Both the position numbers and the translations under genes were made by a program. The notes below the pieces were generated by a model that did not search any database, was not told where the DNA came from, and saw nothing but the letters and a program-made list of their open reading frames with translations. Below, one piece after another: positions 1-12,690 of a stretch of DNA of 64,000 bases. This DNA is from an uncultured Candidatus Bathyarchaeia archaeon (GTDB lineage: Archaea > Thermoproteota > Bathyarchaeia > 40CM-2-53-6): positions 12,238-76,237 of the forward strand of contig CAZLHM010000002.1 in assembly GCA_964559555.1 (NCBI GenBank), read 5' to 3'. How positions within the stretch are numbered: the stretch's first letter is position 1; every line of letters starts with the position of its first letter.

Positions 1-152
1 GCGGGGGTTCTTCGACTCGGGAAGAAAAGACTCTATGTCAGTGTGGGTCACAAGATATCGCTCGAAGATGCTGTAAGGATCGTGAAGCATTGCCTCAGCG
101 AGCGTGGGCTTGAACCTGTGTTGGTGGCGCATCAGGAGGCGAAGAGTCTGAG

Positions 153-842
153 ATGGTCGCACAGGACCTGAGCCCGGTACTTGTGTGGACGCTATTCAAG
201 CTCGCAGAGCTCGGAGCCTATCCTGGAGAACTCTCGATCACAACGGCAAAGCTGGCCGAGAGCCTAGCCATCTCACAGCAGACAGCTTCACGGCATCTCA
301 TAGGGCTCCAGAATCTAGGTCTTATTCGGAGAACCCGCATTGGTCGCGGCGAGGCGATCAGGCTCACCGTGAAAGGCTCGGAAGAGCTCAATAGAATGCA
401 CCTCAGATTCAAGGCGATCTTTGAGATGGAACCCACCGAGCTCCTGTTCGAGGGAACTCTCTTCTCTGGAATAGGCGAAGGCGCCTGGTACATCAGCCAA
501 CTAGGATATCGAAAACAGTTCAAAGAGAAACTTGGATTCGACCCTTTCCCGGGCACGCTTAACCTGACGCTCAACCCTGCGTATGAAGACTCGAAGAAAC
601 GCCTAGAGGCGTTTCCTCAGGTTCAGATTGATGGCTTTCGCGACGGCGAGAGAACCTTCGGCCCCGTCGTGTGTTACAGGGCGAGGATCAATGAATCGGA
701 GAATGGAGCCCTCATCTGCGCTGCAAGGACACACTATGCAGCTGATGTGATCGAGTTGATCGCGCCAGTCAATCTAAGAGTGAAGCTCGGGTTGAAGGAC
801 GGCGACATCGTGAGGGCGCGAGTTATCACTTCGACTCTCTGA
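153..842 (+). CDS. ribK: CTP-dependent riboflavin kinase (archaeal RibK/DUF120-type) with N-terminal winged-helix domain
   Basis: 229-aa ORF. N-terminal HTH-like segment (LAESLAISQQTASRHLIGLQNLGLI). C-terminal domain with PGTLNL...GxRxxGP-type signature typical of the archaeal MJ0056 family. Convergent with and overlapping a RibL-like gene. Confidence 0.65.
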   Translation: MVAQDLSPVLVWTLFKLAELGAYPGELSITTAKLAESLAISQQTASRHLIGLQNLGLIRRTRIGRGEAIRLTVKGSEELNRMHLRFKAIFEMEPTELLFEGTLFSGIGEGAWYISQLGYRKQFKEKLGFDPFPGTLNLTLNPAYEDSKKRLEAFPQVQIDGFRDGERTFGPVVCYRARINESENGALICAARTHYAADVIELIAPVNLRVKLGLKDGDIVRARVITSTL

Positions 843-1539
843 GGAAGACTTGCTTAATCTCAGAGGAGCTCAAGTACTTCTCCTTGTCGAACTTCGACAG
901 TCGGACTATCTGAATCTTCAGATTCCTTCTCTTGACCAGCTCGGTAATCGTCCGTGCAAGCGAGTCTTGATCATACCCGAGCGCAATGATGTCAGGTTTG
1001 ACATCGTCAATGACTTGTTCGTAGCCCATCCCGACATCTTCGTATCCAAGGATGGCTGCGTCAACAGGTTTCAGCGAATCCACAAGTGCTCGTCTATCCT
1101 CCTCAGGGAAGACGGGTCTGCGTCCCTTCAATGTCTCTGCTGTCACGTCAGTCGCCACGACAACGATGAGAACGTCGCCATAGTTTTTCGCTTCCGCGAG
1201 AGCTGTGAGATGCCCGAGGTGGAGTATATCATAGACTCCTCCCGCCAGCACTATCCTCAACATCGATCTTCCAGCCGGGAGCAGAGAGTATTCGTCAGTG
1301 TTCTTTCGTTCAAGCGCTCCTGATCCTGTGAGCCCAGTCAACGTATCTTCGATCGTCTCGGCTTCAATGCCTGTCTTCTCGACTAGTTCTCTCTTCGTGA
1401 AGAATTGTCTTCGAAGTTGGAGGAGGTAGATGGATCTGAGGAGCTTCTTCTCGTTCCCTTTACTCATGTCGTTCTCACGCACGTCTTTATCGCTGTTCGC
1501 AGGTTCTTCGTCGGAATATTGGTTGTCAAATTCATGCAT
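826..1539 (-). CDS. ribL: FAD synthase-like cytidylyltransferase (RibL family) with N-terminal extension
   Basis: VLAGGVYDILHLGHLTALAEAKNYGD = HxGH nucleotidyltransferase motif. The domain is about 150 aa and resembles glycerol-3-phosphate cytidylyltransferase/RibL. A flavin link is suggested by adjacency to ribK. The 3' end overlaps the ribK stop by 17 nt. Confidence 0.5.
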   Translation of the reverse strand: MHEFDNQYSDEEPANSDKDVRENDMSKGNEKKLLRSIYLLQLRRQFFTKRELVEKTGIEAETIEDTLTGLTGSGALERKNTDEYSLLPAGRSMLRIVLAGGVYDILHLGHLTALAEAKNYGDVLIVVVATDVTAETLKGRRPVFPEEDRRALVDSLKPVDAAILGYEDVGMGYEQVIDDVKPDIIALGYDQDSLARTITELVKRRNLKIQIVRLSKFDKEKYLSSSEIKQVFLRESK

Positions 1540-1540
1540 T

Positions 1541-1795
1541 TCAGTGCGTCGGACTCTTCATGCTTGCGATGCCAAGGATGCTCAATGAGTCGAGAAGGCC
1601 CTCGGCGTATGCGACTGATGCAAGAGCAGTCGTCGGTTTCCCTACCTTAAGATAATATTTGCTGTCCGCAACGTATCTCTTGACATAGTCGATGATGCGG
1701 GCAGTCCGTGGCTCATTGATGTTCTCGGCGGTTTTGAGCGCGAACTCAATAGCAGCCAAGTATGCTCGCGCTCGTTCTCTAGGATCTTCGCTCAT
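1541..1795 (-). CDS. small conserved hypothetical protein (84 aa)
   Basis: In-frame ATG (MSEDPRERARAY...) inside the listed 1541..1951 ORF. This start overlaps the dphB stop by 4 nt (ATGA), which suggests translational coupling. Helical composition. No recognisable motif. Confidence 0.4.
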   Translation of the reverse strand: MSEDPRERARAYLAAIEFALKTAENINEPRTARIIDYVKRYVADSKYYLKVGKPTTALASVAYAEGLLDSLSILGIASMKSPTH

Positions 1796-2586
1796 CTCCA
1801 AGCCTCCAACAGCTGAGGCGGGGCTCCTGCCAACACTCTGAGCGATTCTGCTTCCATGAAGTGTAACTTGCTTGGTACGATAATGGAGAAAGGAGGTCCG
1901 CCAAATTCGGACTTCATTAGGTTTCCCGCCGTATCCACTCTCACGATACAATCAGGTGATTCCACTCGGGCAAGTGCGATGGTGAGGGTTTCCTCGGCCA
2001 GAACGCCGGCTTTCTTCGTGCCCTCCAACCTGACTAGGACACTGATAGCTTCAGGGATAGTGAGTTGTGGATCGTCAATATCGAGAAGCCCGAGAGTGTG
2101 AAGACCGATTCTCCTGTTAGCTTCCAAGTACTCATAGACCGATTCTGGATTAGGATTCGTTCTGGGCGAAGGGATTGTGATTGTCCTGCCAAACTTGTAC
2201 ACTTCGAGACCCGTGACACCTGCTGCCGCAGTGACAATCGACGCCGAGTGTACGAGTCTCACTGGAATCCCAATCTTCTTGGCTTCAAGGAGAATTGTCA
2301 GGTGTGTGGTTGCTGACATCGGGTCGCCTGGTGTGAGAAGGGCGACACGTGATTGCTTGGCTCTTGAGAGTATGGTGCGGTCTGCGTCTTCCTCGAGGTC
2401 ATTCCTCTTGAGAACCCTGATTTCTTTTCCGACCAAGCGCTGCAGCCGATCTAGGGAAAGCCCTGGCATGATACTCGTGTAGAACTCCGCGTAGACCACA
2501 TCTGCGTTCCTGGCTGCGTCAAGGCCCCGCAGTGTCAGTCCGTTCTCGTCGTGCAGGCCCATGCCGATCAGTAGTAGCTCTCCCAT
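1792..2586 (-). CDS. dphB: diphthine synthase (tetrapyrrole-methylase fold)
   Basis: 264 aa. The N-terminus MGELLLIGMGLHDENGLTLRGL...ADVVYAEFYTS is characteristic of DphB. This is an archaea/eukaryote-specific enzyme. Confidence 0.8.
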   Translation of the reverse strand: MGELLLIGMGLHDENGLTLRGLDAARNADVVYAEFYTSIMPGLSLDRLQRLVGKEIRVLKRNDLEEDADRTILSRAKQSRVALLTPGDPMSATTHLTILLEAKKIGIPVRLVHSASIVTAAAGVTGLEVYKFGRTITIPSPRTNPNPESVYEYLEANRRIGLHTLGLLDIDDPQLTIPEAISVLVRLEGTKKAGVLAEETLTIALARVESPDCIVRVDTAGNLMKSEFGGPPFSIIVPSKLHFMEAESLRVLAGAPPQLLEAWR

Positions 2587-2640
2587 CTCATCTTCGCGGC
2601 AGAGCTAGTGGGGGGGATGGTAATATTCGTGACCTAACGG

Positions 2641-3726
2641 TCAGACCACTATTCTTCCGTTCTCTACGATTGTCCTGCCGTCAAGTTCGATGGTTGCTTG
2701 GCTGAGAGTTCCCTGAAAGGCGTAGTCGCTGTCGTTCTTCCCGCCCAAGTCTACGTTCGATCCTATTCCGATGGTGACAGCGCCCTTTGCGAATCCGTCC
2801 GTCAGAAACCCTGTCCTTATTCGTGGATTGAGTCCGATCGTGAGGCTCCCGATCTTGTCCTTGGCTCCGTGTCCTCGATCAAATATCGGCTTGACCGCGT
2901 CAAGATTCTTCTGCGCGTTGAAGGCTGTAACTCGTCCATTCTCGAACACCCACTGGAGCCCATGAACCAGCTTCCCAACCTGTGGGACGGGTAGGTCGAA
3001 TGTCACCTTCCCTGAAGCACTGTCCTCGACAACAGACACGGCAACCGATCCTGTCGGGAGAGTTGTGAAGAACAGGCCGCGTTTGAGGTCGTCGTCATCT
3101 ATGACTCCATCATTGATCTGAGTCTGTCGTCCTAGTATGGAGAACTTGAGGTCAGTGCCTATTCGTGATCTCACTCGAACTTCTCTTGCGCGCTCAAGGT
3201 TCGAGGCAACGCGCCTGCCCAAGATGCTCATGTCATCGTACCGAACCGCCGTCGCGGAATCGATCATCCGCTTCCATCGCTGGAAGTTGAAGCCATACGT
3301 CCGAGCCCTCTCCGGAGTGACTGCTCCATGCGCCAGATATGCACCTCGTATCTTCTTCTCTCGACTCTTGTCGAAGTGGGCCTTCTCCCCCTCGAAGGAA
3401 GCAGCGAACTTCTCCGGAGGAACCTTCCTCATCCGAAGAGGATTCGCCGGGCCCCCGATGAAGATATTGACGGTAGTATATTCGGCAAGACCTAGGCAGT
3501 GCTTCGAGGTGACCTTCAGATTCTCTTCGGAGAGCAACTCGAGCTGTGAGTAGTAGCTTCGATCTGTTTCGAGGATGGCCATAGCGTCAGCGCCAATCCG
3601 GAAGCACTCATCAAGTATCGTATCGGAAAGCTCGATCGTGTGTGGCCAAGTATTCACGGTAACGACGTCGTCAGGTCGAATTCTCAGACATTCGCTCACA
3701 ATGGCGTGTGCAACTCGAACCGACAT
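2641..3726 (-). CDS. aminopeptidase, M29 (AmpS/PepS)-like
   Basis: 361 aa. Overall resemblance to thermophilic aminopeptidase T family (IGGPANP..., C-terminal GxxxIGxG...D). Assigned by eye only. Confidence 0.45.
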   Translation of the reverse strand: MSVRVAHAIVSECLRIRPDDVVTVNTWPHTIELSDTILDECFRIGADAMAILETDRSYYSQLELLSEENLKVTSKHCLGLAEYTTVNIFIGGPANPLRMRKVPPEKFAASFEGEKAHFDKSREKKIRGAYLAHGAVTPERARTYGFNFQRWKRMIDSATAVRYDDMSILGRRVASNLERAREVRVRSRIGTDLKFSILGRQTQINDGVIDDDDLKRGLFFTTLPTGSVAVSVVEDSASGKVTFDLPVPQVGKLVHGLQWVFENGRVTAFNAQKNLDAVKPIFDRGHGAKDKIGSLTIGLNPRIRTGFLTDGFAKGAVTIGIGSNVDLGGKNDSDYAFQGTLSQATIELDGRTIVENGRIVV

Positions 3727-3988
3727 AGACTATCCTGCCAAGTATAGGGTCGAAGTGCCTGATAAGAATTCGATCGAATCGACGCCCAAAATCGTGAACG
3801 CACCGAGGAAAATCAAACGATTTGCAGGAGACAGGGGCTCATCACTACTGGATCCAACGCCCCACGTCACACTCCGCCTAATCCGAACGCAGGCAAAGAC
3901 AGTCGTGTGGATTCCAGACTGATGATCGAGGATCTTCGGCAGGAACCAGCATAACCCTGAATGCGGTAGGCCCAAAACGAGTGTTCGG

Positions 3989-4924
3989 ATGTTTTTCGAA
4001 GTGCAAAGCAGTATGCTTACACATCGGAGAGGGATCGGCGTTGCCTCACGGAGATCGAGTCCCTTGTCCAGCAGCCTGATTCCGAGCTTCATTCTCACGT
4101 TTCGAGAGGCGCTGGAAGCTGCTTTAGTCATTGCCATCGCAGCATCATATCTGAGAAGAGTTGGAAAAGCGAGCCTGAACCGACACCTGTACTCGGGTGC
4201 GGTTGCTGCTGTGGGAGTCAGTGTTCTGCTGGGCGTCGTTGTATTCGGGTTCTATGGCGGGCTGTCTGGTGTCTCGGCCGAGATCTTTGAAGGGATCGCC
4301 TCTTTGATCGCTGCGCTCGTCTTGACGTACATGATCCTGTGGATGACTAGACGTGCGCGGACCATGAGGACGGAATTGGAACATAGGGTCGAGGTAGCTG
4401 TGACTACTGGGCAGATGCTCGGAATAGTTGCCCTATCTTTCGTTGCGGTGTTCAGAGAGGGTCTCGAAACTGTTCTGTTCCTCACCGCACTCGCCATCGC
4501 TGACTGGTATGGCACATTAGTTGGCGCCGCGATCGCGTCCCTGACAGTGATCATCTTGGCGGCATTTCTGATGCGTGGAATCTATCGACTCGATACTCCG
4601 AGATTCTTCCAAGTTACGAGTGTACTCCTCATAGTCTTCGCAGCTGGGTTGTCTGGTTACGCCGCACATGAGCTCTTGGAGGCCGCTGAGCACTCCGGTA
4701 TCGAACTCGGAATACTGGGACAGCACGCGTTTGACATCAATCCGCTGAAGAATCAGGATGGAACCTATCCTCTGTTGCATGAGAAAGGCGCGGTGGGATC
4801 TGTGCTCGCGGCGCTGGTCGGGTATGATGGCAACCCTGAATGGATGCGGGTCATCGTCTACGTAGGATACTGGCTCGTGCTTGGCGTGTACGTCCTATTC
4901 TCACGTCGACGCTTGAGTTCTTGA
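3989..4924 (+). CDS. FTR1/EfeU-family high-affinity iron permease
   Basis: Polytopic membrane protein with two RExxE motifs (FREALEAALV and FREGLETVLF). These are diagnostic of the FTR1/EfeU family. The true start is probably an internal Met. Confidence 0.65.
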   Translation: MFFEVQSSMLTHRRGIGVASRRSSPLSSSLIPSFILTFREALEAALVIAIAASYLRRVGKASLNRHLYSGAVAAVGVSVLLGVVVFGFYGGLSGVSAEIFEGIASLIAALVLTYMILWMTRRARTMRTELEHRVEVAVTTGQMLGIVALSFVAVFREGLETVLFLTALAIADWYGTLVGAAIASLTVIILAAFLMRGIYRLDTPRFFQVTSVLLIVFAAGLSGYAAHELLEAAEHSGIELGILGQHAFDINPLKNQDGTYPLLHEKGAVGSVLAALVGYDGNPEWMRVIVYVGYWLVLGVYVLFSRRRLSS

Positions 4925-5043
4925 TAGATCTGGAGACGAACGACCTCGCAGGAGACAGAGACCTTCCTGCGACGCCATCTATCCGCGTCGATTCGATTGA
5001 TGAAAACTTAAGTAGACTTCCCAGTCATGTGCGAAATCTCGGA

Positions 5044-5177
5044 GGGTCCGTAGCTCAGGCAGGCAGGTTGATCTGCCCTCGAAAGGTAGAGCAGCGGTCT
5101 CGCAGGAGCAAGGCTGAAGCTCTTAACCGCTGAGGGATACCCGAAGGTCGAGGGTTCAATTCCCTCCGGACCCGCCA
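5044..5177 (+). tRNA. intron-containing tRNA gene (about 131 nt before CCA; at least two introns), isotype unresolved (Lys-CUU favoured)
   Basis: Perfect 7-bp acceptor stem GGGTCCG/CGGACCC. U8 A9. D-stem GCTC...GAGC. T-arm GAGGG-TTCAATT-CCCTC. Discriminator G and encoded CCA. The acceptor and T-arm closely resemble archaeal tRNA-Lys. The D-loop is about 23 nt too long and the anticodon region about 20 nt too long. A CTCTTAA loop is present at 5120-5126. Confidence 0.6.
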
Positions 5178-5371
5178 AAAACTGACTGGAGAGATGGACG
5201 GCTACGTCAGGCAGCTGGTCAAGAAGGCCGCTGATTCTGGAGGAAGGATTCCGAAGCAGTCGAACGTGTACGAGGAGATTGTCAGGAAAGGATGGGAGGC
5301 AGTGAAGAGGCAGAACAAGAAGTAGCTGGACAGTGATTTAAGCTCAAGCAGCCAAATATGTTTCGAGTGTT

Positions 5372-6583
5372 ATGGGGACATTCTCGTCTGGGAACATTGC
5401 AATCGCATTCAACGATAATGACGGCAAGGCTGAGCGGATTCTAGCAAACGGGACGGATATCCGAACCATAGTTTTCCAACTTACCTCGATGCCTTCGATT
5501 GGTAGAGCTCCAGTTCTTCCCGATGAACTCCACCAATTAGCTAACCAAGTTTTCGACGCCATAGAGGATCTCGTTCGTCAGGGTCTAAACACATTTGTCG
5601 CGGTGTCCGCCGCCGACCGCTTTTTCGAGTCTTTCACACCGCTCTATCGCTATCTTTCGAGTTTCGGATTTCAAGGGGCAGCCTCGCATACGTGGGTGCA
5701 GCTTATTCGATGGACGCTTGAGTGGGAGAAGAGCCACTCCACCCAGATTCACAAGGGCACTCCATTCTTCTTTCTTGGAGAGAGCCTGATCTACCAGGGC
5801 GACATTGAGACTGCCTTTCTATTCATCTACAATGCCGTGGAAGAGGACAAGTCTTCGTATCAAGCTGTGGGCCAGCCAGACCGCTACAAGCAAGCTCCTG
5901 CCTACATGACTGCCACAATCGTTGACAATCCGGCGAACGTGCTCTACAAGCCTGTCGTCCGACGCATTCGAGAAGCAATCAGCAACTACGCCACATCGTT
6001 CTCTCAAGCGACCAATTCGCCTTACACTCTGGCTGACTTCCAGACCAACTTCTTGGACAAGCCCGATCTTGAGAAGCTCGTATTCTTCTTTGTCTACAAC
6101 ATGTATGTGCACATTCAGCGAAATCGCTTTCAGCAAGTATCTCAATTCTTCGACAACGATTTCACCAAGATCAAGAATCTTGATTCAATCTTCAACATGT
6201 GCCTCATAATTGAAGAGTTGCTTCAGCACAGGTTCGGTCAAGGGAAAGACAAGTACTACATCACAAATGGAATCTTGGACCTTGCGGCAAACAAGACATG
6301 GAGGACATGGGTCGCGAAAAACGAAGCATGGGAGCAGTTTCTCGGGAAGTTGGGTGGCGTCGCCATCGGGCCCGATCCAAAGACTACAGTTCCGGCCTTG
6401 CTAACTAGCAACATCACCTACGCAGGTCAGCCATTGAAGCAAGAGCTTCGCTACCTGCTCTTGGCTTGGCACTTGCGGAACTATGGCGGCCACAACATTC
6501 GAGTGCAAGACGTTCTTGTCAAGTCATACGATCAGATATTCGAGTGCTTGATCTATGCATTGTTCATCGCGGGTCAACCATGA
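5372..6583 (+). CDS. hypothetical protein (403 aa), first gene of a putative two-gene module with HEPN-like partner
   Basis: Long ORF with coding-like composition. No recognisable catalytic motif except a possible C-terminal Rx4H (HLRNYGGHNIR). Stop lies 18 nt before the next gene. Located next to the tRNA, in an island context. Confidence 0.5.
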   Translation: MGTFSSGNIAIAFNDNDGKAERILANGTDIRTIVFQLTSMPSIGRAPVLPDELHQLANQVFDAIEDLVRQGLNTFVAVSAADRFFESFTPLYRYLSSFGFQGAASHTWVQLIRWTLEWEKSHSTQIHKGTPFFFLGESLIYQGDIETAFLFIYNAVEEDKSSYQAVGQPDRYKQAPAYMTATIVDNPANVLYKPVVRRIREAISNYATSFSQATNSPYTLADFQTNFLDKPDLEKLVFFFVYNMYVHIQRNRFQQVSQFFDNDFTKIKNLDSIFNMCLIIEELLQHRFGQGKDKYYITNGILDLAANKTWRTWVAKNEAWEQFLGKLGGVAIGPDPKTTVPALLTSNITYAGQPLKQELRYLLLAWHLRNYGGHNIRVQDVLVKSYDQIFECLIYALFIAGQP

Positions 6584-6601
6584 GCCGGCTGAGGAGCGCT
6601 C

Positions 6602-7045
6602 TTGATAAGCAAGGAACAGTATTGGGAGATTGACAAGTTCTACAGCAAAGCAACATCGATACTTGACGAAGCCAGAGAGCATGTCAAGAAGTTCGAGTAC
6701 GACCTGTGCGTGAGGCGCTCGCAGGAAGCCTTCGAGCTGTTTCTCAAGACCATGTTCAAGTTGATCGGCGAGGAGTATCCGCAGAAGCACGAGATCAGCC
6801 AAGAGATTTACGACATGCACAGCTCTCTAAAGAAATACGACTTCTCGGCTCAGAAGGTCGCTCAGATAGTCCACAGGAATCGGACCCTGGGGGTTTGGCG
6901 AGAGAAGTCGTTCTACGGCGACGAGAAGCTTGGAGTGACCTCCATCTTCACAGAGCACGAGGCAAGATTAGCGCTGTCCTATGCAGAAGATATCTCGACA
7001 GACTGTTATGTGGTGCGAAGTCGGGTGTTCTCGGAAGTGCGGTGA
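6602..7045 (+). CDS. HEPN-like domain protein (147 aa)
   Basis: All-helical. DLCVRRSQEAFELFLKTMFKLIGEEYPQKHEISQ matches the HEPN (PF05168-like) core pattern: hydrophobic heptads followed by a conserved His. Confidence 0.4.
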   Translation: MISKEQYWEIDKFYSKATSILDEAREHVKKFEYDLCVRRSQEAFELFLKTMFKLIGEEYPQKHEISQEIYDMHSSLKKYDFSAQKVAQIVHRNRTLGVWREKSFYGDEKLGVTSIFTEHEARLALSYAEDISTDCYVVRSRVFSEVR

Positions 7046-7147: not shown

Positions 7148-7194
7148 ATATGATATATATCATAATATCACAAATCTGTGAGGTTGTGATATGA
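7148..7194 (+). promoter_or_regulatory. AT-rich promoter/operator: 14-bp palindrome plus 9-bp inverted repeat overlapping the abiEi start
   Basis: ATGATATATATCAT (7150-7163) is a perfect palindrome and is TATA-like. ATATCACAA (7165-7173) and TTGTGATAT (7184-7192) are perfect inverted repeats with a 10-nt spacer, ending 2 nt before the ATG at 7195. Confidence 0.4.
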
Positions 7195-7830
7195 ATGAAA
7201 ACGGACATGTTGCTCAGAAAGCTCCGCATGGAAAATAAGGAATTCGCCACGTCAGAGGAGCTGAGGGCATATTGCAAGTCATTGAAGCTGGATTACGACA
7301 TTGCGATCAGGCATCTTGTTCCGCGGGGATACCTGGTCAGAATCCTCAGGGGGATATTCTATGTCAAGTCACTTGAAGAGCTGGAGCTGGCGAGGCCCAG
7401 ATACAATCATCTCGAACTCGTCGCCAGAGGCCTTGAGCTGAAAGGTGTCAGCAACTGGTACTTTGGCCTGCACACGGCGCTCAAGCTCAACAACATGACC
7501 CACGAGGCGTTTGCAGTGGAAGACGTGATAAGCGACAAGCTGTTCCGAGCGAACCCGTTCAAGATCGCAGGGTACAAGTTCAAGTTCTCAAGGCTCTCGC
7601 CATCGCTCCTTGACTTTGGAATAAGGAAAGGGGAGAACGGCGTAAGGTATTCTGATCCAGAAAAAACGATTCTCGACTTCATCTACATATGGAGATACAA
7701 CGGCGTACCCGAAGACAAGATTGCGGCTGACGTGTCCGGTTGGGCGAAGAATGTGGCGAAGAAGATGAGGTCGTATGCGAGGAAGTATCCTAATACCGTG
7801 GCGGAGATTGCTGAGAGAGTGGCCAAATGA
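7195..7830 (+). CDS. abiEi: AbiEi-like antitoxin / transcriptional regulator (type IV TA)
   Basis: 211 aa. Sits directly upstream of an AbiEii-family gene and overlaps it by 4 nt. Size and N-terminal wHTH-like region are consistent with AbiEi. Confidence 0.55.
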   Translation: MKTDMLLRKLRMENKEFATSEELRAYCKSLKLDYDIAIRHLVPRGYLVRILRGIFYVKSLEELELARPRYNHLELVARGLELKGVSNWYFGLHTALKLNNMTHEAFAVEDVISDKLFRANPFKIAGYKFKFSRLSPSLLDFGIRKGENGVRYSDPEKTILDFIYIWRYNGVPEDKIAADVSGWAKNVAKKMRSYARKYPNTVAEIAERVAK

Positions 7831-8762
7831 GAGCCGATTTTGTAAACGAGGTCGCAAGAGTCCTAGACATCAAGAGAAGGGACTTGGTCGAGAAAGACCT
7901 CATCCTTCATCAGATGCTGACGGACCTATCACAGGAGAGTTTCTTTTCCGATAACTTCCTGTTCAAAGGTGGGACGTGCCTAATCAAGTGCTACTTCGGC
8001 TACCTGCGATTCTCGGAGGACATCGATTTCACATGGAAAGACCAGAGTGTCTTCGAAGGCAAGTCGCAGAAGCAAATCAGAAAGTACCTGTCGGATGTCA
8101 TCAACAAGACCGGAGACGTTTTCGAAGCCGTCGCCGAGAAGAGAGGCCTTGATTTCAAGTGCGTAAAGAGCAACAGGGACTATGTCGAACTCGGCGGCAA
8201 TGACAAGACCTGCACGCTCAAGATATGGTACGATTCCGAGATACTGAAAAGGCGGACGTTCCCGAAGGTGCAGATTAATTTCGTCGAGACCATGTGCTTC
8301 TCTCCGAAGAAAGGGGAGCTCAGCGGACTGCTGACAGGCAAGCACGAAGAGCTTGAAGGCCTGTTTCCCGAAGAGACAGCCGAGTATGCCAAGAGGATAG
8401 CTTTCAGCGTGTACGACATCCGCGAGACACTGTGTGAGAAGGTGCGCGCGCTTCTTACACGCGAAGGAACCAAGGCACGGGATTTCCTTGATGTCTACTT
8501 GATATGGAAACGGTTCGGCCTCAGGCCAGAAGACGAGGAGAAATGCATAATCGGCAAGATAGATTTCTCGCTGAGGCTCTATGCAAAGTACAGGCAGCAT
8601 CTGAAGCAGAAGGTCGCCTTGCTGAAGTCTGGGAAGCTGTTCGACTGGGGGACCGAGAAGGAATTGCTGCTGTCCGACATGGACGAGGGAGATTTCTACA
8701 AGTTCCTAGGCGGGTTCCAAGAGTTCCTTAAGAAAGCCGTGAAAGCTGTGGGCTACGGATAG
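7827..8762 (+). CDS. abiEii: AbiEii/AbiGii-family nucleotidyltransferase toxin (DUF1814)
   Basis: FLFKGGTCLIKCYFGYLRFSEDIDFT matches the DUF1814 signature (KGGTAL...Y...RFSEDIDF). Confidence 0.75.
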   Translation: MRADFVNEVARVLDIKRRDLVEKDLILHQMLTDLSQESFFSDNFLFKGGTCLIKCYFGYLRFSEDIDFTWKDQSVFEGKSQKQIRKYLSDVINKTGDVFEAVAEKRGLDFKCVKSNRDYVELGGNDKTCTLKIWYDSEILKRRTFPKVQINFVETMCFSPKKGELSGLLTGKHEELEGLFPEETAEYAKRIAFSVYDIRETLCEKVRALLTREGTKARDFLDVYLIWKRFGLRPEDEEKCIIGKIDFSLRLYAKYRQHLKQKVALLKSGKLFDWGTEKELLLSDMDEGDFYKFLGGFQEFLKKAVKAVGYG

Positions 8763-8793: not shown

Positions 8794-9354
8794 TTGCAGA
8801 ATATTGAACATATGTTCAAAAAATTAGAATTCATCACTCCGACGCTCATGTCAGTCTTGGAGCTCTTCCTGTCTGATCCCATGCGAGAGCACCATCAGAG
8901 GGAGGTGGCAAGAAGCGCCAAGGTGAGCGTGGGCTCTGCGAACAGGATACTCAAGCTACTGGCTGATCTGGATATGCTTGCCGGACAAAGGAGGGGCAGG
9001 ATGGTGTTCTACAAGCTGAACGCTGGGGACCCGGTCGTCAGGCAGTTCAAGGCGCTGCTGAATGTCTACTCTTTGAAGCCCTTGCTCCAAGCGGCAAGGC
9101 ACCATTCCAGAAGGATACTCCTGTTCGGAAGGTCAGCCCAAGGATCCGATGTGAAGGAAAGCGACATAGACCTCTTCGTTCTCACTTCGGACAAGGGGCC
9201 AGTCAGGAGCGAGATCAGCGGATCCAACAGGAAAAGCGAGAGGAAGATTGCTCCTGTAATCGTTGACGCGAACGAATTTGTCAGGCTCAAGAGAAACGAC
9301 AGGGCTCTCTATGAGAACATCGAAAGGGGGATCACACTGTGGCAGGCAGAATGA
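8794..9354 (+). CDS. winged-HTH fused to minimal nucleotidyltransferase (MNT) domain
   Basis: LLFGRSAQGSDVKESDIDLFVL = GSx(n)DxD Pol-beta-type nucleotidyltransferase motif. N-terminal wHTH (RILKLLADLDMLAGQRRGRMVFYKL). Confidence 0.7.
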   Translation: MQNIEHMFKKLEFITPTLMSVLELFLSDPMREHHQREVARSAKVSVGSANRILKLLADLDMLAGQRRGRMVFYKLNAGDPVVRQFKALLNVYSLKPLLQAARHHSRRILLFGRSAQGSDVKESDIDLFVLTSDKGPVRSEISGSNRKSERKIAPVIVDANEFVRLKRNDRALYENIERGITLWQAE

Positions 9355-9524
9355 GCTCGGAGCTTGCCAAGCTGCTGGAGCAAAGAAAGCTGTTCAGATC
9401 CAGAATCTCTCGGGAGATGATTCAGAAGGAAACCAAAGCGGCTGAAAAGGACTTGCAGGATGCGCGCTGCCCCTTGTTCACTGATTGGCAGAGAACTCCA
9501 TCCTGCGCAGCTCTTGTGATATGA
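9339..9524 (+). pseudogene. possible truncated HEPN-like remnant downstream of the MNT gene
   Basis: The first 45 aa are helical (MAGRMSSELAKLLEQRKLFRSRISREMIQKETKAAEKDLQDA). The ORF then runs antisense into the histidine-kinase 3' end and is only 61 aa. It lies where an MNT cognate HEPN would be expected. Confidence 0.2.
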
Positions 9525-12500
9525 TGGGAATTCTCACGGTGAACGTCGATCCCTCTCCGAATGTACTTTTCGCATGAATCGAGCCACCGTGCGCTTCCAC
9601 TATGCGCTTGCTGATCGCGAGTCCGAATCCCATTCCTTTCGCCTTTGTTGTGAATAGCGGTGTCCAAAGCTTCGCTAGGGTCTCATTCGTCATGCCGATT
9701 CCCGTGTCAGCGAACGATATCTCTACTTGTCCGTCTGCCTCTCTGCTTGATATCGCGAGCGATCCGCCTTCGGGCATTGCTTCTATGGCATTCTTGATGA
9801 TATTGAGAAGCGCTCTTCGGATCTTCTCTCGATCAGCCACCAGTTTGGGGGAAGGCTTGCTCGAGTCATCTATCTGCACGTTCGATGGAACTTGGACGAG
9901 AGGTAGTGATTGCTGTACCATTGACTTGGGACTGGTCAGGGCAAGATGCAGGTGTATCTCTGCAGAGTATTCCAGGAGGTCGGTGATGACCTTATCAGAA
10001 TACTCGATGCAGTCGTCAATGACCCTTAGAGATTCCGTGATCTGTTCACCGTTCCTTGCGCCCAGTCTCGTCTTGAGTAGGTACGCTGCGCTCGCGATCC
10101 CTTGAAGTGGATTCCTGAGGTCGTGACCCACCATGGCTGCTGTTGTGCCGATCGCGGCGAGGCGTTCAGACTTGAGGAGTGCCTCTTCCATACGTTTGCG
10201 GTCGGTAATGTCCATGACAATTCCTCTCAGGCCGACAGCCTTGCCTTCGCGTAGAATGGGTGCAGCGTGCACGATTACTGGGAATGTGCTGCCGTTCTTT
10301 CTCTTGATCGTGTATTCGCTGCCGCTCACCTTCTCTCCCCTTAACAGCTTACGAATATTCTCTCTGGCCCTTTCATGATGTTCCGATGGAAACATCATGA
10401 ATGCGTTCGATCCCTCGTGGAGTTCCTTCTCAGTATAGCCGGTAGCCTCAGAGGCGATGCGGTTCACGAAGGCGATATTGCCCTCGGTATCAATCTCAAA
10501 CACGATCTGCGGCAGAAGGTCAGCCAATTCCCTGAATCTTCGTTCGCTCTCTGATAGTTCAAGGGTTCTTTCTGCAACGACTTGCTCCAAGTTTGATGAG
10601 TAGGCTCTCAGTTCCTGAGCGTGACGTTGTCTCTGCTCAAGGAGTCGCGCATTCTCGACAGCAATGGCAGCGTGATTGGCAAACAGACTCAACAACTCCA
10701 AGTCTGATTGCGTGAAGTGCTGTGACTCAGAGTAGTCGAGTACGTGGATCACTCCGGTGACTTGGCTCTGCCAGATCATGGGCACTGTGAGGACGGCTCG
10801 GAAGGGGTGCTCTTCCTCGTAGGCGATGGCTCGACCGGACCAAGTGCGATAGTCGTCGATGATCAATGGTTCTCCGGCTTCGGCCACAATCCCTGCTGCC
10901 CCCTCTCCGTACTTCAGCACAGTTCCAATGTAGTCACGAGGGGTCATGTAGCTGACAACGCAGCGAACCTCGCGTTTCTTGGGATCGCATAGATACATCC
11001 CCCCACTAGGCGCGTCAAGCAACCGAGCTGCTCGTTCGACGATCGCTTGAAGCAATGACGGTAGATCGTGTCGGCGCGTGATCTCGAGGACGGTCGCTTG
11101 AAGAGCGCTCAACTCTTCAGCTCGTGAGTGCAGTCTGTCACTCATGAGCTTACGCTCTAGGGCGTTTCCGAGAATTCCAGATGAAAACCGGAGAAGCGAG
11201 TAGTCATCCTCACTCCACCTTCTGGCCCCAACAATGTTGTCAAAACCTATGAATCCGGCCAGCTCTCCACCTACCCCGACGGGTAGTACCAGGAGCGATT
11301 TGACGTCTTGGCTCTCCAGAACACTTTTCTCAGCTGCTGCCTCGAGAGGTAGCTTTGAGACATCCTCGACGTGTATGACTTCACCCTTGCGAAGTCTTGT
11401 CATCCACCACGAGAACGTCTCACAGGGTAGATTCTGAAGATTCTCGATCTGCGGACTCACTCCGTCCGCACACCACTCATGCGTGTTGCTCATCTTGTTT
11501 CCGTCTTCGGAAAGCATGAAGACGTAGACGCGACCAGCTCCACTAAGCCTGCCCATGTCACGCAAAGATTCCTTGATGGACTCATCGATGTCGGATGCGC
11601 CCACAAATCTGGACGAGATCGTGGCAATGGTCCTTTCAAAATCGTACCTGCATGCGAGAGAGTGCTCAACCCGCTTACGTTCAGTGATATCTAGAATGAT
11701 CGCTTGGAAGCCCACGGTCTTGCCCTCCACTCTGAGTCTTGTCGGCTTTGAATAGAGGTGAAGAACACGCCCGTCTTTGTGTATCGCTCTGAACTCCAGA
11801 TCTCCGGTCTCTCTTGTTGAAGAAGCAGCTCGAAGGAAGAGTTCCATCACTCTTGTCGCATCCTCAGTGTGCAGGAAGCTCTTGAACTGGAGACCCAACA
11901 GTTCGAGAACTGAATACCCCAGCATCTTGGCGAATGCTTGATTCACATAGGTGAACTTGCCTTCCGTGTCTGTAAGCGCGATCGGTGCAGCGGTCTCTTG
12001 GACTAGGCTCCGAAACCTCTCTTCGCGTTCTCGTAAAACCCGATCAGTCTGCTTACGCCTAGTCATGTCACGCGCAACATAGAAGCTTCCAATCTGCCGT
12101 CTGCCCTCATGGAGGAGTCCGCCGCGAATCTCAAGGTTGATTCTGCCTCCAGTCTTGGTCTGGATCTCCAACTCAAGTCGCTTCACGCGCTGCCCACGAG
12201 AGATCCTCTGCAACTCGTTCTCGACAGTGGTTCGAGCTTTGGGAACCACGAAGTCCACTGGATTGCGGCCGATCAGGTCCTTGATGGTATATCCCGTCGC
12301 CTTGCATGTTGCCGGATTCACGGCGACTATTCTGTTTGAGCGGTCGAGAGCGAAGAAGAGGTCGCTGGCTTGTTCGAAATATGTGCGAAGGCGCCGATCA
12401 CTTCGCACTTGCTCCACGAGTTTCTTCCGGGTTCGATCAGAGCTCACCTGACGACGCTCGCGCGGCTTTGGAATGCTTCGTACGTGCTGTGATGAATCGG

Positions 12501-12690
12501 GGCTTCTGCGACGTTCCAATAGAGCCTCGACAGTAGCCCTCTTTCCGCTCGGAGTCCTAGTCATTTCTAGTTCCCGAGCAAGGCCTGATGCCAACCAATC
12601 TGCGAGTACAGCTCTGATCCCGCCCAGTACGGCTGCGCAAGGAAAAGATATGGGTCTGCTGTCACTCGCAGGTTTTCGGTTGAGAGACAA
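9478..12690 (-). CDS. multi-PAS/GAF sensor histidine kinase (1070 aa)
   Basis: Several PAS-like repeats. HisKA H-box VGHDLRNPL. C-terminal HATPase_c (DTGIGM...GMGFGLAISKRIVEAHGG). Confidence 0.8.
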   Translation of the reverse strand: MSLNRKPASDSRPISFPCAAVLGGIRAVLADWLASGLARELEMTRTPSGKRATVEALLERRRSPDSSQHVRSIPKPRERRQVSSDRTRKKLVEQVRSDRRLRTYFEQASDLFFALDRSNRIVAVNPATCKATGYTIKDLIGRNPVDFVVPKARTTVENELQRISRGQRVKRLELEIQTKTGGRINLEIRGGLLHEGRRQIGSFYVARDMTRRKQTDRVLREREERFRSLVQETAAPIALTDTEGKFTYVNQAFAKMLGYSVLELLGLQFKSFLHTEDATRVMELFLRAASSTRETGDLEFRAIHKDGRVLHLYSKPTRLRVEGKTVGFQAIILDITERKRVEHSLACRYDFERTIATISSRFVGASDIDESIKESLRDMGRLSGAGRVYVFMLSEDGNKMSNTHEWCADGVSPQIENLQNLPCETFSWWMTRLRKGEVIHVEDVSKLPLEAAAEKSVLESQDVKSLLVLPVGVGGELAGFIGFDNIVGARRWSEDDYSLLRFSSGILGNALERKLMSDRLHSRAEELSALQATVLEITRRHDLPSLLQAIVERAARLLDAPSGGMYLCDPKKREVRCVVSYMTPRDYIGTVLKYGEGAAGIVAEAGEPLIIDDYRTWSGRAIAYEEEHPFRAVLTVPMIWQSQVTGVIHVLDYSESQHFTQSDLELLSLFANHAAIAVENARLLEQRQRHAQELRAYSSNLEQVVAERTLELSESERRFRELADLLPQIVFEIDTEGNIAFVNRIASEATGYTEKELHEGSNAFMMFPSEHHERARENIRKLLRGEKVSGSEYTIKRKNGSTFPVIVHAAPILREGKAVGLRGIVMDITDRKRMEEALLKSERLAAIGTTAAMVGHDLRNPLQGIASAAYLLKTRLGARNGEQITESLRVIDDCIEYSDKVITDLLEYSAEIHLHLALTSPKSMVQQSLPLVQVPSNVQIDDSSKPSPKLVADREKIRRALLNIIKNAIEAMPEGGSLAISSREADGQVEISFADTGIGMTNETLAKLWTPLFTTKAKGMGFGLAISKRIVEAHGGSIHAKSTFGEGSTFTVRIPIISQELRRMEFSANQ

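Follow-up and report, generated by a model that had tools for sequence, protein, structure and literature searches.

An unannotated HEPN-domain protein family and its clade-specific operon at a tRNA-bordered island of a Bathyarchaeia archaeon

Two co-oriented genes, here called ORF-A and ORF-B, lie behind a tRNA gene in the genome of an uncultured Bathyarchaeia archaeon. The initial annotation had proposed them as a candidate new defense or toxin module, in which a large protein of no recognizable family is coupled to a small HEPN-like partner. The locus thereby raises the question of what kind of protein ORF-A is, and whether the two genes form a unit beyond this genome. We investigated both points in the window (the whole 64,000-nt stretch of DNA that was analyzed), in related loci and in species-representative genomes.

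A tRNA-bordered island with defense genes

The features of the locus are as follows (+, forward strand):

5044..5174, +, archaeal tRNA gene carrying two insertions (introns); borders the variable island on the left (Rfam RF00005)
5194-5325, +, RHH-like gene remnant of 43 aa, 5'-truncated, between the tRNA and ORF-A
5335..5345, +, TATA-like element GATTTAAGCTC, 27-37 nt before the ORF-A start codon
5372-6583, +, ORF-A, ATG start, 403 aa
5372..5926, +, N-terminal region of ORF-A, residues 1-185; helices preceded by three short beta-strands (model)
5927..6580, +, ORF-A C-terminal HEPN domain, residues 186-403
6476..6493, +, R369-N370-Y-G-G-H374, canonical HEPN Rx4-6H motif, invariant in 52/52 homologs
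6591-6596, +, GAGGAG, Shine-Dalgarno-like, 5 nt before the ORF-B TTG
6602-7045, +, ORF-B, TTG start, 147 aa
7195-7830, +, AbiEi (PADLOC 1.1e-46)
7827-8762, +, AbiEii (PADLOC 3.5e-66; Pfam 1.1e-24)
8794-9354, +, wHTH-MNT gene (PADLOC PDC-M05A 3.7e-20)
9339-9524, +, 61-aa ORF after the wHTH-MNT gene, resembling helix 1 of a HEPN partner

The gene pair had been described as separated by 18 nt, just downstream of a tRNA gene, in a block of the defense-island type with a complete AbiE system and a wHTH-MNT gene. The coordinates and spacing of the two genes are correct, PADLOC and Pfam recovered the AbiE and wHTH-MNT genes, and the surroundings are indeed those of a variable island at a tRNA amid defense genes. 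The intron-bearing tRNA was identified with Rfam (RF00005, 40.4 bits, full model 1-71 covered); its D-loop holds a 30-nt insertion, and a second one of 37 nt lies at the anticodon loop. ARAGORN with default settings gave no match at 5044-5174, and a tRNA-Arg call obtained when introns were allowed was dropped because its structure was implausible. A related island in locus L144 is flanked by the same tRNA (95% identical). A direct repeat of the tRNA 3' end, as a mark of the island border, was looked for and not found. AbiEi and AbiEii (7195..8762) are a separate adjoining unit with palindromes of their own (inverted repeats at 7149-7192, before AbiEi), and the right border of the island is the region of the wHTH-MNT gene and the 61-aa ORF (8794..9524).

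The initial annotation had overlooked the gene remnant at 5194-5325. In related loci, ORF-A follows an intact RHH-like gene of 58-60 aa (copies in L001, L010, L144 and L094), and tblastn with the 60-aa protein of L010 matched the window at 5161-5322 with 67% identity. In the window copy, the 3' end of the tRNA stands where the N-terminal beta-strand part of the gene was. The small gene had no Pfam match; its pattern 'KVRVSFTLNEGLAKEIDGYL' suggests an RHH protein. Since this upstream gene is truncated, the cassette in the window may be partly decayed. Between the remnant and ORF-A, the 11-mer GATTTAAGCTC is found at equal distance from ORF-A in the window, L010, L011, L144 and L081, and it is probably the archaeal promoter of an ORF-A/ORF-B operon. 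In the whole 64-kb window, the junction element before ORF-A has a single copy.

ORF-A belongs to a large family with a C-terminal HEPN domain

ORF-A matched nothing in Pfam, NCBIfam, PADLOC or the PDB sequences, in agreement with its earlier description as a protein of no recognizable family, and none of the searches placed it in a housekeeping family. In PADLOC-DB v2, no family matched ORF-A or ORF-B at E<=1. Close relatives of ORF-A form 27 clusters, and the family comprises at least 1,047 representatives (clusters at 50% identity) from archaea and bacteria at E<=1e-3, with 327 representatives at E<=1e-30. Searches of 52 diverse relatives against Pfam (E<=0.01 and E<=1), PADLOC and NCBIfam returned mostly scattered weak TPR matches, and one relative had a marginal PADLOC match (PDC-M17A, 0.003). 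No HEPN-clan Pfam model matched ORF-A at E<=1, and none was among the 25 Pfam families commonest among these 52 relatives at the same threshold. A family profile searched against PDB sequences returned nothing, no link to any characterized HEPN family was found at the sequence level, and no relatives were found in viral, phage and plasmid collections.

In the AF2 model of ORF-A (pLDDT 90.8, pTM 0.90), the C-terminal half contains the four-helix up-and-down bundle common to solved HEPN domains. Foldseek with the full model against the PDB gave TPR-like noise only (E > 0.07). A C-terminal R-x4-H (HLRNYGGHNIR) had been pointed out as HEPN-like. A lone motif of this kind in one 403-aa protein would be about what chance provides; across 52 homologs with 21% mean column identity, only four columns are invariant, namely H127, R369, N370 and H374. 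The suggestion is thus upheld by both the conservation of the motif and the fold that carries it. HEPN domains have their Rx4-6H motif where helix-3 ends and the loop toward helix-4 starts, with a polar N, D or H after the R; helix 2 carries an acidic residue, typically within Ex3[KR], and is separated from helix 3 by a variable insert (PMC3710099). In the model, the RNxxxH site straddles the C-terminal end of helix 357-372 and the first part of the loop that leads into the final helices. An acidic residue at position 281, in helix 263-288, is kept in 50 of the 52 homologs (D/E) and is followed four residues on by K/R285 in 25 of them, and the segment between these two helices (289-356) is gap-rich and poorly conserved. 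Motif placement, acidic helix residue and variable insert therefore all fit the published HEPN features. Because RNxxxH is invariant and occupies its canonical place, where helix 3 ends, we regard ORF-A as a new HEPN family with an extra N-terminal domain.

The N-terminal region showed a weak TPR-like resemblance and nothing stronger. The invariant H127 lies in the loop I-H-K-G-T-P (nt 5750-5764), and W118, E119 and D159 are near-invariant; we propose that this region is a sensor or regulator, or contributes to the active site. Comparison with hhalign gave probabilities below 1% both for the N-domain against the C-domain and for the ORF-A family against the ORF-B family, hence there is no detectable internal duplication in ORF-A and no detectable homology between ORF-A and ORF-B.

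Distant homologs were searched for in genomes with a 24-sequence alignment as query and turned up in species-representative genomes of 19 archaea and 48 bacteria from many phyla. The spread of the family is patchy and its flanks are heterogeneous, with BrxL, pAgo, Mrr, GmrSD, parts of type I, II and III R-M systems, MADS mad2, a CAP12/Pycsar-type TIR protein, SIR2 and HicAB among the flanking genes. Several distant homologs adjoin housekeeping genes (e.g., EngA, an aminotransferase and BacA), and the association of the family with defense is a qualitative one. The syntenic tRNA locus of L144 holds a truncated copy: the N-terminal 197 residues of ORF-A remain, the HEPN half and ORF-B are both missing, and no replacement gene is present. 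The RHH/ORF-A DNA there is 85% identical to that of the window, compared with 72.5% for the housekeeping flanks. A housekeeping role for ORF-A was considered and rejected on the grounds of the patchy distribution, the varying flanks and this truncation in a close relative. As the C-terminal half is a HEPN domain, ORF-A is probably a toxin-type ribonuclease; by analogy, the Abi or toxin kind of RNase is the most likely function.

ORF-B and the reach of the pairing

ORF-B, described earlier as HEPN-like, matched Pfam PF05168 above the gathering score (39.8 bits vs. 22, E 5.6e-10, residues 12-132). Its homologs are annotated as PF05168, and some also carry a weak PF14355 (Abi_C) match. PADLOC and PDB sequences gave no match to ORF-B, nor did PDB sequences match the ORF-B family profile. 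The canonical Rx4-6H is absent from the family alignment (n = 33), which has R100-x6-D107 instead, within W99-R100-x3-F-Y105-G106-D107 and with no H there; H63 and the E45-x3-K49 motif show full or almost full conservation. An HEPN-T variant with D for H and an alternative, more N-terminal H has been described (PMC3710099), and judged from its sequence ORF-B is of this PF05168 (HEPN-T) lineage, a D-for-H variant with H63 as the alternative histidine. The picture of a large unknown protein with a HEPN partner is thus reversed, in that ORF-A is itself the canonical HEPN protein and the small ORF-B lacks the canonical histidine. We also considered ORF-B as a classical MNT-associated HEPN protein (type VII) and rejected this, as no MNT is adjacent. 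The gene directly upstream is ORF-A, and the sole MNT gene (8794-9354) lies 1.7 kb downstream of ORF-B, behind AbiE, with an apparent HEPN remnant of its own.

Clade-wide, the ORF-A/ORF-B junction is an 18-25 nt gap or a 4-nt overlap; in L081 and L083, the start codon of ORF-B shares bases with the stop codon of ORF-A (cTTGAtaa). The GAGGAG before ORF-B in the window suggests that ORF-B is an operon-internal, co-translated gene. ORF-B is found directly 3' of ORF-A in eight of nine intact close homologs (at least 56% identity) and in at least six downstream contexts, the exception being P0007, which is 56% identical and has no ORF-B. Pairwise identities of ORF-A and ORF-B are correlated (r = 0.73, 6 loci).

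In the wider family, the pairing disappears. No ORF-B relative was found beside any of the 67 distant homologs in species-representative genomes, and clustering of all genes within 3.5 kb revealed no conserved partner; the sole recurring neighbor was an R-M methylase cluster (6 loci). Conversely, 59 of 63 metagenome loci with ORF-B relatives have no ORF-A, and most of these relatives instead follow RHH genes, a CD-NTase or other genes. Small RHH-like genes directly precede them in L087-L090 (type 2, 13 nt upstream) and in L094 (type 1), with RHH remnants in L085 and L082. As distant ORF-A homologs have no partner and ORF-B occurs mostly without ORF-A, the broad family looks like a single-gene one, and the two-gene module appears lineage-specific. 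The pairing is real but narrow: it is restricted to one archaeal clade, in which it is independent of context. The expectation that the genes would be conserved as neighbors consequently holds for close relatives in several defense contexts and fails for the family at large. ORF-B copies without ORF-A nest within clades of copies with it, and the pairing may therefore be a dispensable adjacency.

Relation to known systems and competing explanations

ORF-A resembles the Abi-type single-chain HEPN effectors AbiJ, AbiD/AbiF/Abi2 and AbiU2 (Anantharaman et al. 2013, PMC3710099) in joining a non-catalytic N-terminal domain to a HEPN domain at the C-terminus, whose site reads R-[N]-x3-H. Like them, its family consists of solo genes, often beside R-M and other defense genes, and the same logic may be proposed for it, with an N-terminal domain that senses or inhibits and a HEPN domain that is the RNase toxin. 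In contrast to these effectors, ORF-A matches no Pfam model of their families, has a different N-terminal domain with its invariant loop, and belongs to a family that covers archaea and bacteria. The HepT/HEPN toxins of MNT-HEPN systems (type VII TA; PDB 7ae2, 5yep, 8xdj and 1jog) have Rx4-6H at the same position, but ORF-A is three times their size, stands next to no MNT gene and is just 6-9% identical to them in sequence. RnlA/LsoA (RNase LS) differ in an unrelated N-terminal domain, without sequence similarity, and in their antitoxins, since RnlB/LsoB are not HEPN proteins. ORF-B shares with AF0298-type HEPN-T proteins (PF05168) the Ex3K, the retained R, the D for the canonical H, the alternative N-terminal H and a recurrent clustering with R-M operons. 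Unlike these, ORF-B is not beside an MNT, its upstream partners being ORF-A, RHH genes or a CD-NTase/SMODS cyclase, and even its family profile matches no PDB sequence.

On balance, we favor the explanation that ORF-A represents a family of stand-alone HEPN RNase toxins or effectors which, in one clade, forms an operon with ORF-B. By analogy with HepT, RnlA/LsoA, Csm6 and Abi proteins, ORF-A would be a metal-independent endoribonuclease, and its own N-terminal domain (~185 aa, H127) would gate this activity. When triggered, for example by a virus, it would cleave RNA of the cell or of the virus and halt growth (abortive infection). Family-wide, it is a solo accessory gene in variable, often defense-rich neighborhoods. 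In the archaeal clade that includes the window, it forms an operon with ORF-B, with which it may interact physically, behind the probable TATA-like promoter and usually with the RHH-like gene upstream, and the cassette hops between defense islands (type I and type IIG R-M, AbiE, tRNA hot spot). ORF-A thus adds to a well-known kind of defense or toxin gene and is not a new kind of system. What stands of the proposed new module is an unannotated HEPN family, often with defense genes nearby, whereas the two-gene module is lineage-specific.

The tight and in places overlapping junction bears on a competing explanation that we consider possible but doubtful, in which the RHH gene and ORF-B are a type II-like TA pair (ORF-B the HEPN toxin, the RHH protein its antitoxin or repressor) and ORF-A is an independent HEPN effector inserted between them in one lineage, so that the two HEPN proteins do not interact. 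The RHH-like genes and remnants before ORF-B relatives would be explained in this way, as would the solo state of every distant ORF-A homolog and the nesting of unpaired ORF-B copies among paired ones, and RHH-HEPN fusions exist in Thermoproteales (PMC2701414). Such an insertion does not readily account for the junction, for its persistence in at least six contexts with correlated divergence, or for an RHH gene that is truncated in the window beside an intact ORF-B. Further, ORF-A has a promoter-like element of its own behind the RHH gene, which means that a plain two-gene operon of RHH and ORF-B does not describe this locus. 

The same junction would suit a toxin with a decoy, an explanation that we find unlikely. 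HEPN RNases build their active sites at dimer interfaces (Csm6, RnlA, HepT); ORF-B, as a pseudo-HEPN antitoxin, would contribute across this interface a half-site with R...D for R...H, and the composite RNase site would be inactive until ORF-B is lost or displaced. This agrees with the missing canonical H, with a gene anatomy that points to translational coupling, with the asymmetric co-occurrence (close intact ORF-A nearly always with ORF-B, ORF-B often without ORF-A) and with the joint loss of the HEPN half and ORF-B in L144, where the N-terminal part of ORF-A was kept. Distant solo homologs have the same catalytic motif, however, so ORF-A needs no antitoxin in general. ORF-B also has a strongly conserved H63 together with R100, like HEPN-T proteins that are proposed to be active (PMC3710099), and elsewhere RHH or nucleotidyltransferase genes precede it, which puts it in the downstream "toxin" position. 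Still less probable is its extension to a new TA logic, an RHH/ORF-A/ORF-B cassette in which the HEPN RNase is held inactive by a heterodimer with a degenerate pseudo-enzyme. If it were true, the small HEPN might serve other upstream partners, e.g., CD-NTase/SMODS cyclases or other HEPN genes, and the recurrent RHH 3'-end fragments at cassette junctions might be traces of a hot spot at which archaeal defense islands exchange cassettes. We give the least credence to a role outside defense, with ORF-A as a non-catalytic or regulatory HEPN (like MtlR or nucleotidyltransferase substrate-binding domains) or a housekeeping RNA-processing enzyme, and with the island incidental. While some HEPN domains and families are non-catalytic, these have typically lost the Rx4-6H (PMC3710099) that is invariant in ORF-A. 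Housekeeping neighbors of several distant homologs and the lack of relatives in the phage, plasmid and viral collections fit such a role; the patchy occurrence across many phyla with variable flanks, the tRNA hot spot and the truncation without replacement argue against it.

Recognition of the ORF-A family as HEPN proteins gives a testable function to many "hypothetical proteins" in defense islands. At least 1,000 sequence clusters, across archaea and bacteria, are invisible to Pfam, NCBIfam and PADLOC. To our knowledge, few defense systems are known in archaea, and it is there that this recognition weighs most. Even if ordinary, ORF-A is one more HEPN family for defense-gene catalogs, and its clade-specific operon, in which a second, non-canonical HEPN protein and an RHH gene accompany it, offers a natural experiment on the control of HEPN nucleases.

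A further HEPN fragment may be present at the right border of the island. The 61-aa ORF at 9339-9524 runs into the 3' end of a convergent histidine-kinase gene; since it had no PADLOC match, we only infer from its resemblance to a first HEPN helix that it is the truncated HEPN partner of the wHTH-MNT gene.

Layout of the tRNA-adjacent island

The initial annotation placed two genes, encoding a 403-aa protein (ORF-A) and a HEPN-like protein (ORF-B), 18 nt apart, just downstream of a tRNA gene, in a block with AbiE and wHTH-MNT genes. We recovered the same layout in the window:

5044-5174, tRNA gene upstream of ORF-A (Rfam, 40.4 bits)
5194-5325, small ORF of 43 aa between the tRNA and ORF-A, 5'-truncated remnant of a 58-60-aa RHH-like protein
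5372-6583, + strand, ORF-A, open reading frame, 403 aa
6602-7045, + strand, ORF-B, open reading frame, 147 aa, TTG start
7195-7830, AbiEi, downstream of ORF-B
7827-8762, AbiEii, downstream of ORF-B
8794-9354, wHTH-nucleotidyltransferase, downstream of ORF-B (PADLOC PDC-M05A match)

ORF-B has a GAGGAG element 5 nt ahead of its start codon. The tRNA gene was missed by default ARAGORN, and relative to the Rfam model it carries insertions of 30 nt (D-loop) and 37 nt (anticodon loop). We read both as introns, which are an archaeal feature of tRNA genes. ARAGORN with introns allowed returned tRNA-Arg(CCT) with an implausible fold, and this anticodon call was not adopted.

The 43-aa ORF had been overlooked in the initial annotation. 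It lacks the N-terminal beta-strand part, and the 3' end of the tRNA abuts the remnant. Intact forms sit upstream of ORF-A in related loci (L010 168-350; L001 5771-5947; L144 5775-5954), as against positions 5161-5325 for the remnant in the window; in L094 (1580-1774) the gene is found immediately 5' of ORF-B rather than ORF-A. Across these loci the RHH-like protein measures 58-64 aa, ends in NVYEEIV[KR]KGWExVK[KR] and has no Pfam match.

We consider AbiE a separate unit because AbiEi has its own nested palindromes, TATGATAT/ATATCATA and ATATCACAA...TTGTGATAT, at 7149-7192 immediately 5' of its start, probably its autoregulatory operator. The wHTH-MNT gene and a following 61-aa ORF (8794-9524 region) appear to form a truncated PDC-M05 module at the right border of the island. 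This ORF overlaps the last 16 nt of the wHTH-MNT gene, resembles the first helix of a HEPN partner and enters the 3' end of a convergent 1,070-aa PAS/GAF histidine-kinase gene (9478-12690, - strand).

A tRNA-adjacent island in a related genome (L144-L146) is syntenic with window positions 1-5960. Identity between L144 and the window amounts to 95% for the tRNA, 72.5% for the housekeeping flanks and 85% for the RHH/ORF-A DNA, the island DNA being better conserved than those flanks. L144 has an intact RHH-like gene. Its ORF-A breaks off near residue 197 and lacks the HEPN domain; no ORF-B is present, and next comes an AbiEi/AbiEii pair (272/270 aa) other than that of the window. L144-L146 lacks the window's FTR1 permease gene (3989-4924). 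Therefore, we regard the tRNA locus as a variable, horizontally exchanged island.

The ORF-A family and its HEPN site

As initially suspected, ORF-A belongs to no recognized family, with no match in Pfam, NCBIfam, PADLOC or PDB sequences. A word-indexed search yielded 27 related clusters, and a profile search of 1.84 billion representatives yielded 1,047 relatives at E<=1e-3 (327 at E<=1e-30), mostly of 360-410 aa. None of 52 diverse relatives had a meaningful Pfam, NCBIfam or PADLOC match. Only H127, R369, N370 and H374 are invariant in their alignment (mean column identity 21%). The C-terminal R-x4-H noted in the initial annotation could have arisen by chance in a single sequence; with R369, N370 and H374 invariant, it ranks as the family's best-conserved feature.

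The AlphaFold2 model of ORF-A is a single confident unit (pLDDT 90.8, pTM 0.90), helical apart from three short N-terminal strands; Foldseek found no match to it in the PDB. R369-N370, with the polar N directly after the motif R, close helix 357-372 in the model, and H374 opens a loop toward the last helices. An acidic D/E281 in the long helix before the motif helix is present in 50 of the 52 relatives, with K/R at +4 in about half, and residues 289-356, between these helices, form a variable insert. The motif geometry fits the superfamily definition (PMC3710099), and we take the HEPN domain of ORF-A to be canonical and probably catalytic.

The N-terminal region of about 185 residues weakly resembles TPR-like helical hairpins and contains a strikingly conserved loop, W118-E119...I-H127-K-G-T-P, plus D159. 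Its W-E-x7-H-K-G-T-P motif (5723-5764, residues 118-131) lies where a long helix ends and a loop starts, a placement with a superficial likeness to that of L-R-N-x3-H in the HEPN site. No significant similarity between the N- and C-domains was detected by hhalign.

In structure, ORF-A comes closest to HepT-type toxins and RnlA, and in architecture to Abi proteins with N-terminal domains. The modeled fold and the motif agree with the HEPN superfamily, but ORF-A failed sequence-model membership in every described HEPN family, and both HEPN genes beside R-M and Abi systems (PMC3710099) and RHH-HEPN combinations (PMC2701414) are already documented. We therefore conclude that ORF-A is a new family of a known superfamily, outside current models. 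The two-HEPN operon of one clade is interesting as a unit, albeit unproven.

Association of ORF-A with ORF-B

ORF-B matches Pfam HEPN PF05168 above threshold, in line with its initial HEPN-like label, and has neither a PADLOC nor a PDB sequence match. Its relatives form 38 clusters, in which E45, H63, W99-R100 and F104-Y105-G106 are invariant and K49 nearly so; D107 comes next after G106, and there is no histidine after the arginine. This pattern fits the HEPN-T variant, which has D in place of H and an alternative, more N-terminal conserved H, and whose genes recurrently cluster with R-M operons (Anantharaman et al., PMC3710099). We regard ORF-B as an ordinary, if divergent, member of PF05168.

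ORF-B directly follows every ORF-A homologue of 64-79% identity, with a gap of 18-25 nt or a 4-nt overlap, and the genes beyond it vary.

Genes downstream of ORF-B in close-clade loci
Window: AbiE
L001: convergent unknown genes, then N6/N4 methylase
L010: DUF7557-HsdR-HsdM
L011: HsdM-PIN-HsdS
L147: type IIG MmeI/Eco57I-like enzyme
L081: uncharacterised 256-aa gene
L083: small gene, then HsdM
L086: contig fragment

The pair proposed in the initial annotation thus holds as neighbours in varied contexts for eight of nine intact close homologues, the exception being P0007 (56% identical), which has no ORF-B; it does not extend to distant homologues. Pairwise identities of ORF-A and ORF-B correlate (r = 0.73), and five loci share a conserved TATA-like element, GATTTAAGCTC, 27-37 nt upstream of the ORF-A start codon; we take both as further evidence for co-inheritance. 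Scanning 185,579 species-representative genomes revealed 67 distant ORF-A homologues (<=33% identity; 19 archaeal, 48 bacterial), none with an ORF-B relative or any other recurrent partner nearby. Their heterogeneous flanks contain many defence genes (BrxL, pAgo, Mrr, GmrSD, R-M subunits, MADS mad2, a CAP12/Pycsar-type TIR protein, PDC-S68/S35, LeoA) and housekeeping genes too; SIR2, MNT-HepT and HicAB are among the neighbours in metagenome loci. Conversely, ORF-A is present in only 4 of 63 metagenome loci with ORF-B relatives, and both counts speak against the pair being a two-gene system in general. Copies of ORF-B that lack ORF-A nest within clades of copies that have it, and therefore ORF-A was repeatedly gained or lost.

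Without ORF-A, ORF-B lies directly 3' of small RHH-like genes (L087-L090, L094; remnants in L082, L085), of a CD-NTase/SMODS cyclase (L097, L099), or of various other genes, among them those for an EVE-domain, a PIN, a NERD-like and an uncharacterised 101-aa protein. The cyclase-linked copies (L097 246-1895; L099) are distant relatives (41-43% identity) 24 nt downstream of the cyclase (PADLOC Cyclase, 8.5e-133), a pair reminiscent of MNT-HEPN, or of a CBASS-like system whose HEPN partner is minimal. In most cases, a type I R-M operon immediately follows the close relatives of ORF-B. A DUF7557 (PF24434) protein of 49-51 aa with an RHH-like pattern, which may be a controller protein, directly precedes such operons (HsdR/HsdM) at L010 2241-2390 and L082 2969-3124. 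The L082 ORF-B copy, at a locus devoid of ORF-A, is 88% identical to that of the window at the DNA level; upstream are a C-terminal DUF4145-type HEPN fragment (1974-2165; PF13643, E 2.2e-8) and a decayed RHH remnant.

Proposed function and cassette junctions

On balance, we lean toward ORF-A being a self-contained sensor-effector HEPN ribonuclease of the abortive-infection or toxin kind, carried in one clade on a mobile cassette in an operon with ORF-B and the RHH gene. It would act like AbiJ- or AbiD/F-type proteins, in which the N-terminal domain has been proposed to hold back or set off a C-terminal HEPN toxin (PMC3710099). The analysis itself shows the fold, the motif, the size of the family, the gene anatomy and the co-occurrence statistics; RNase activity, toxicity, a defence role and such gating are what we infer for ORF-A. 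In one archaeal clade, it would have come to share an operon with ORF-B, the promiscuous small HEPN-T protein, and with the upstream RHH gene, and the cassette would move among defence islands.

Any contact between the two proteins is likewise putative. ORF-B could be a decoy antitoxin, pairing with ORF-A in a HEPN heterodimer that is inactive. The asymmetric co-occurrence and the joint loss of the ORF-A HEPN domain and ORF-B in L144 support this; the solo distant ORF-A homologues and the conserved alternative site of ORF-B itself speak against it, and we consider it improbable. In a rival reading, the true TA-like unit consists of RHH and ORF-B, with ORF-A riding along as a passenger. A non-catalytic or housekeeping ORF-A is unlikely given the invariant HEPN motif and the patchy, mobile distribution.

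Cassette junctions repeatedly contain 3'-terminal pieces of the small RHH-like gene, placed either just before or just after ORF-B (L001 7769-7810; L086 632-736; L094 2218-2316; L085 3909-3986; L096 1060-1137; L081 464-529 and 3098-3136), and the window holds a single copy. These fragments may have been left behind when cassettes recombined, or may belong to a hot spot of cassette exchange.
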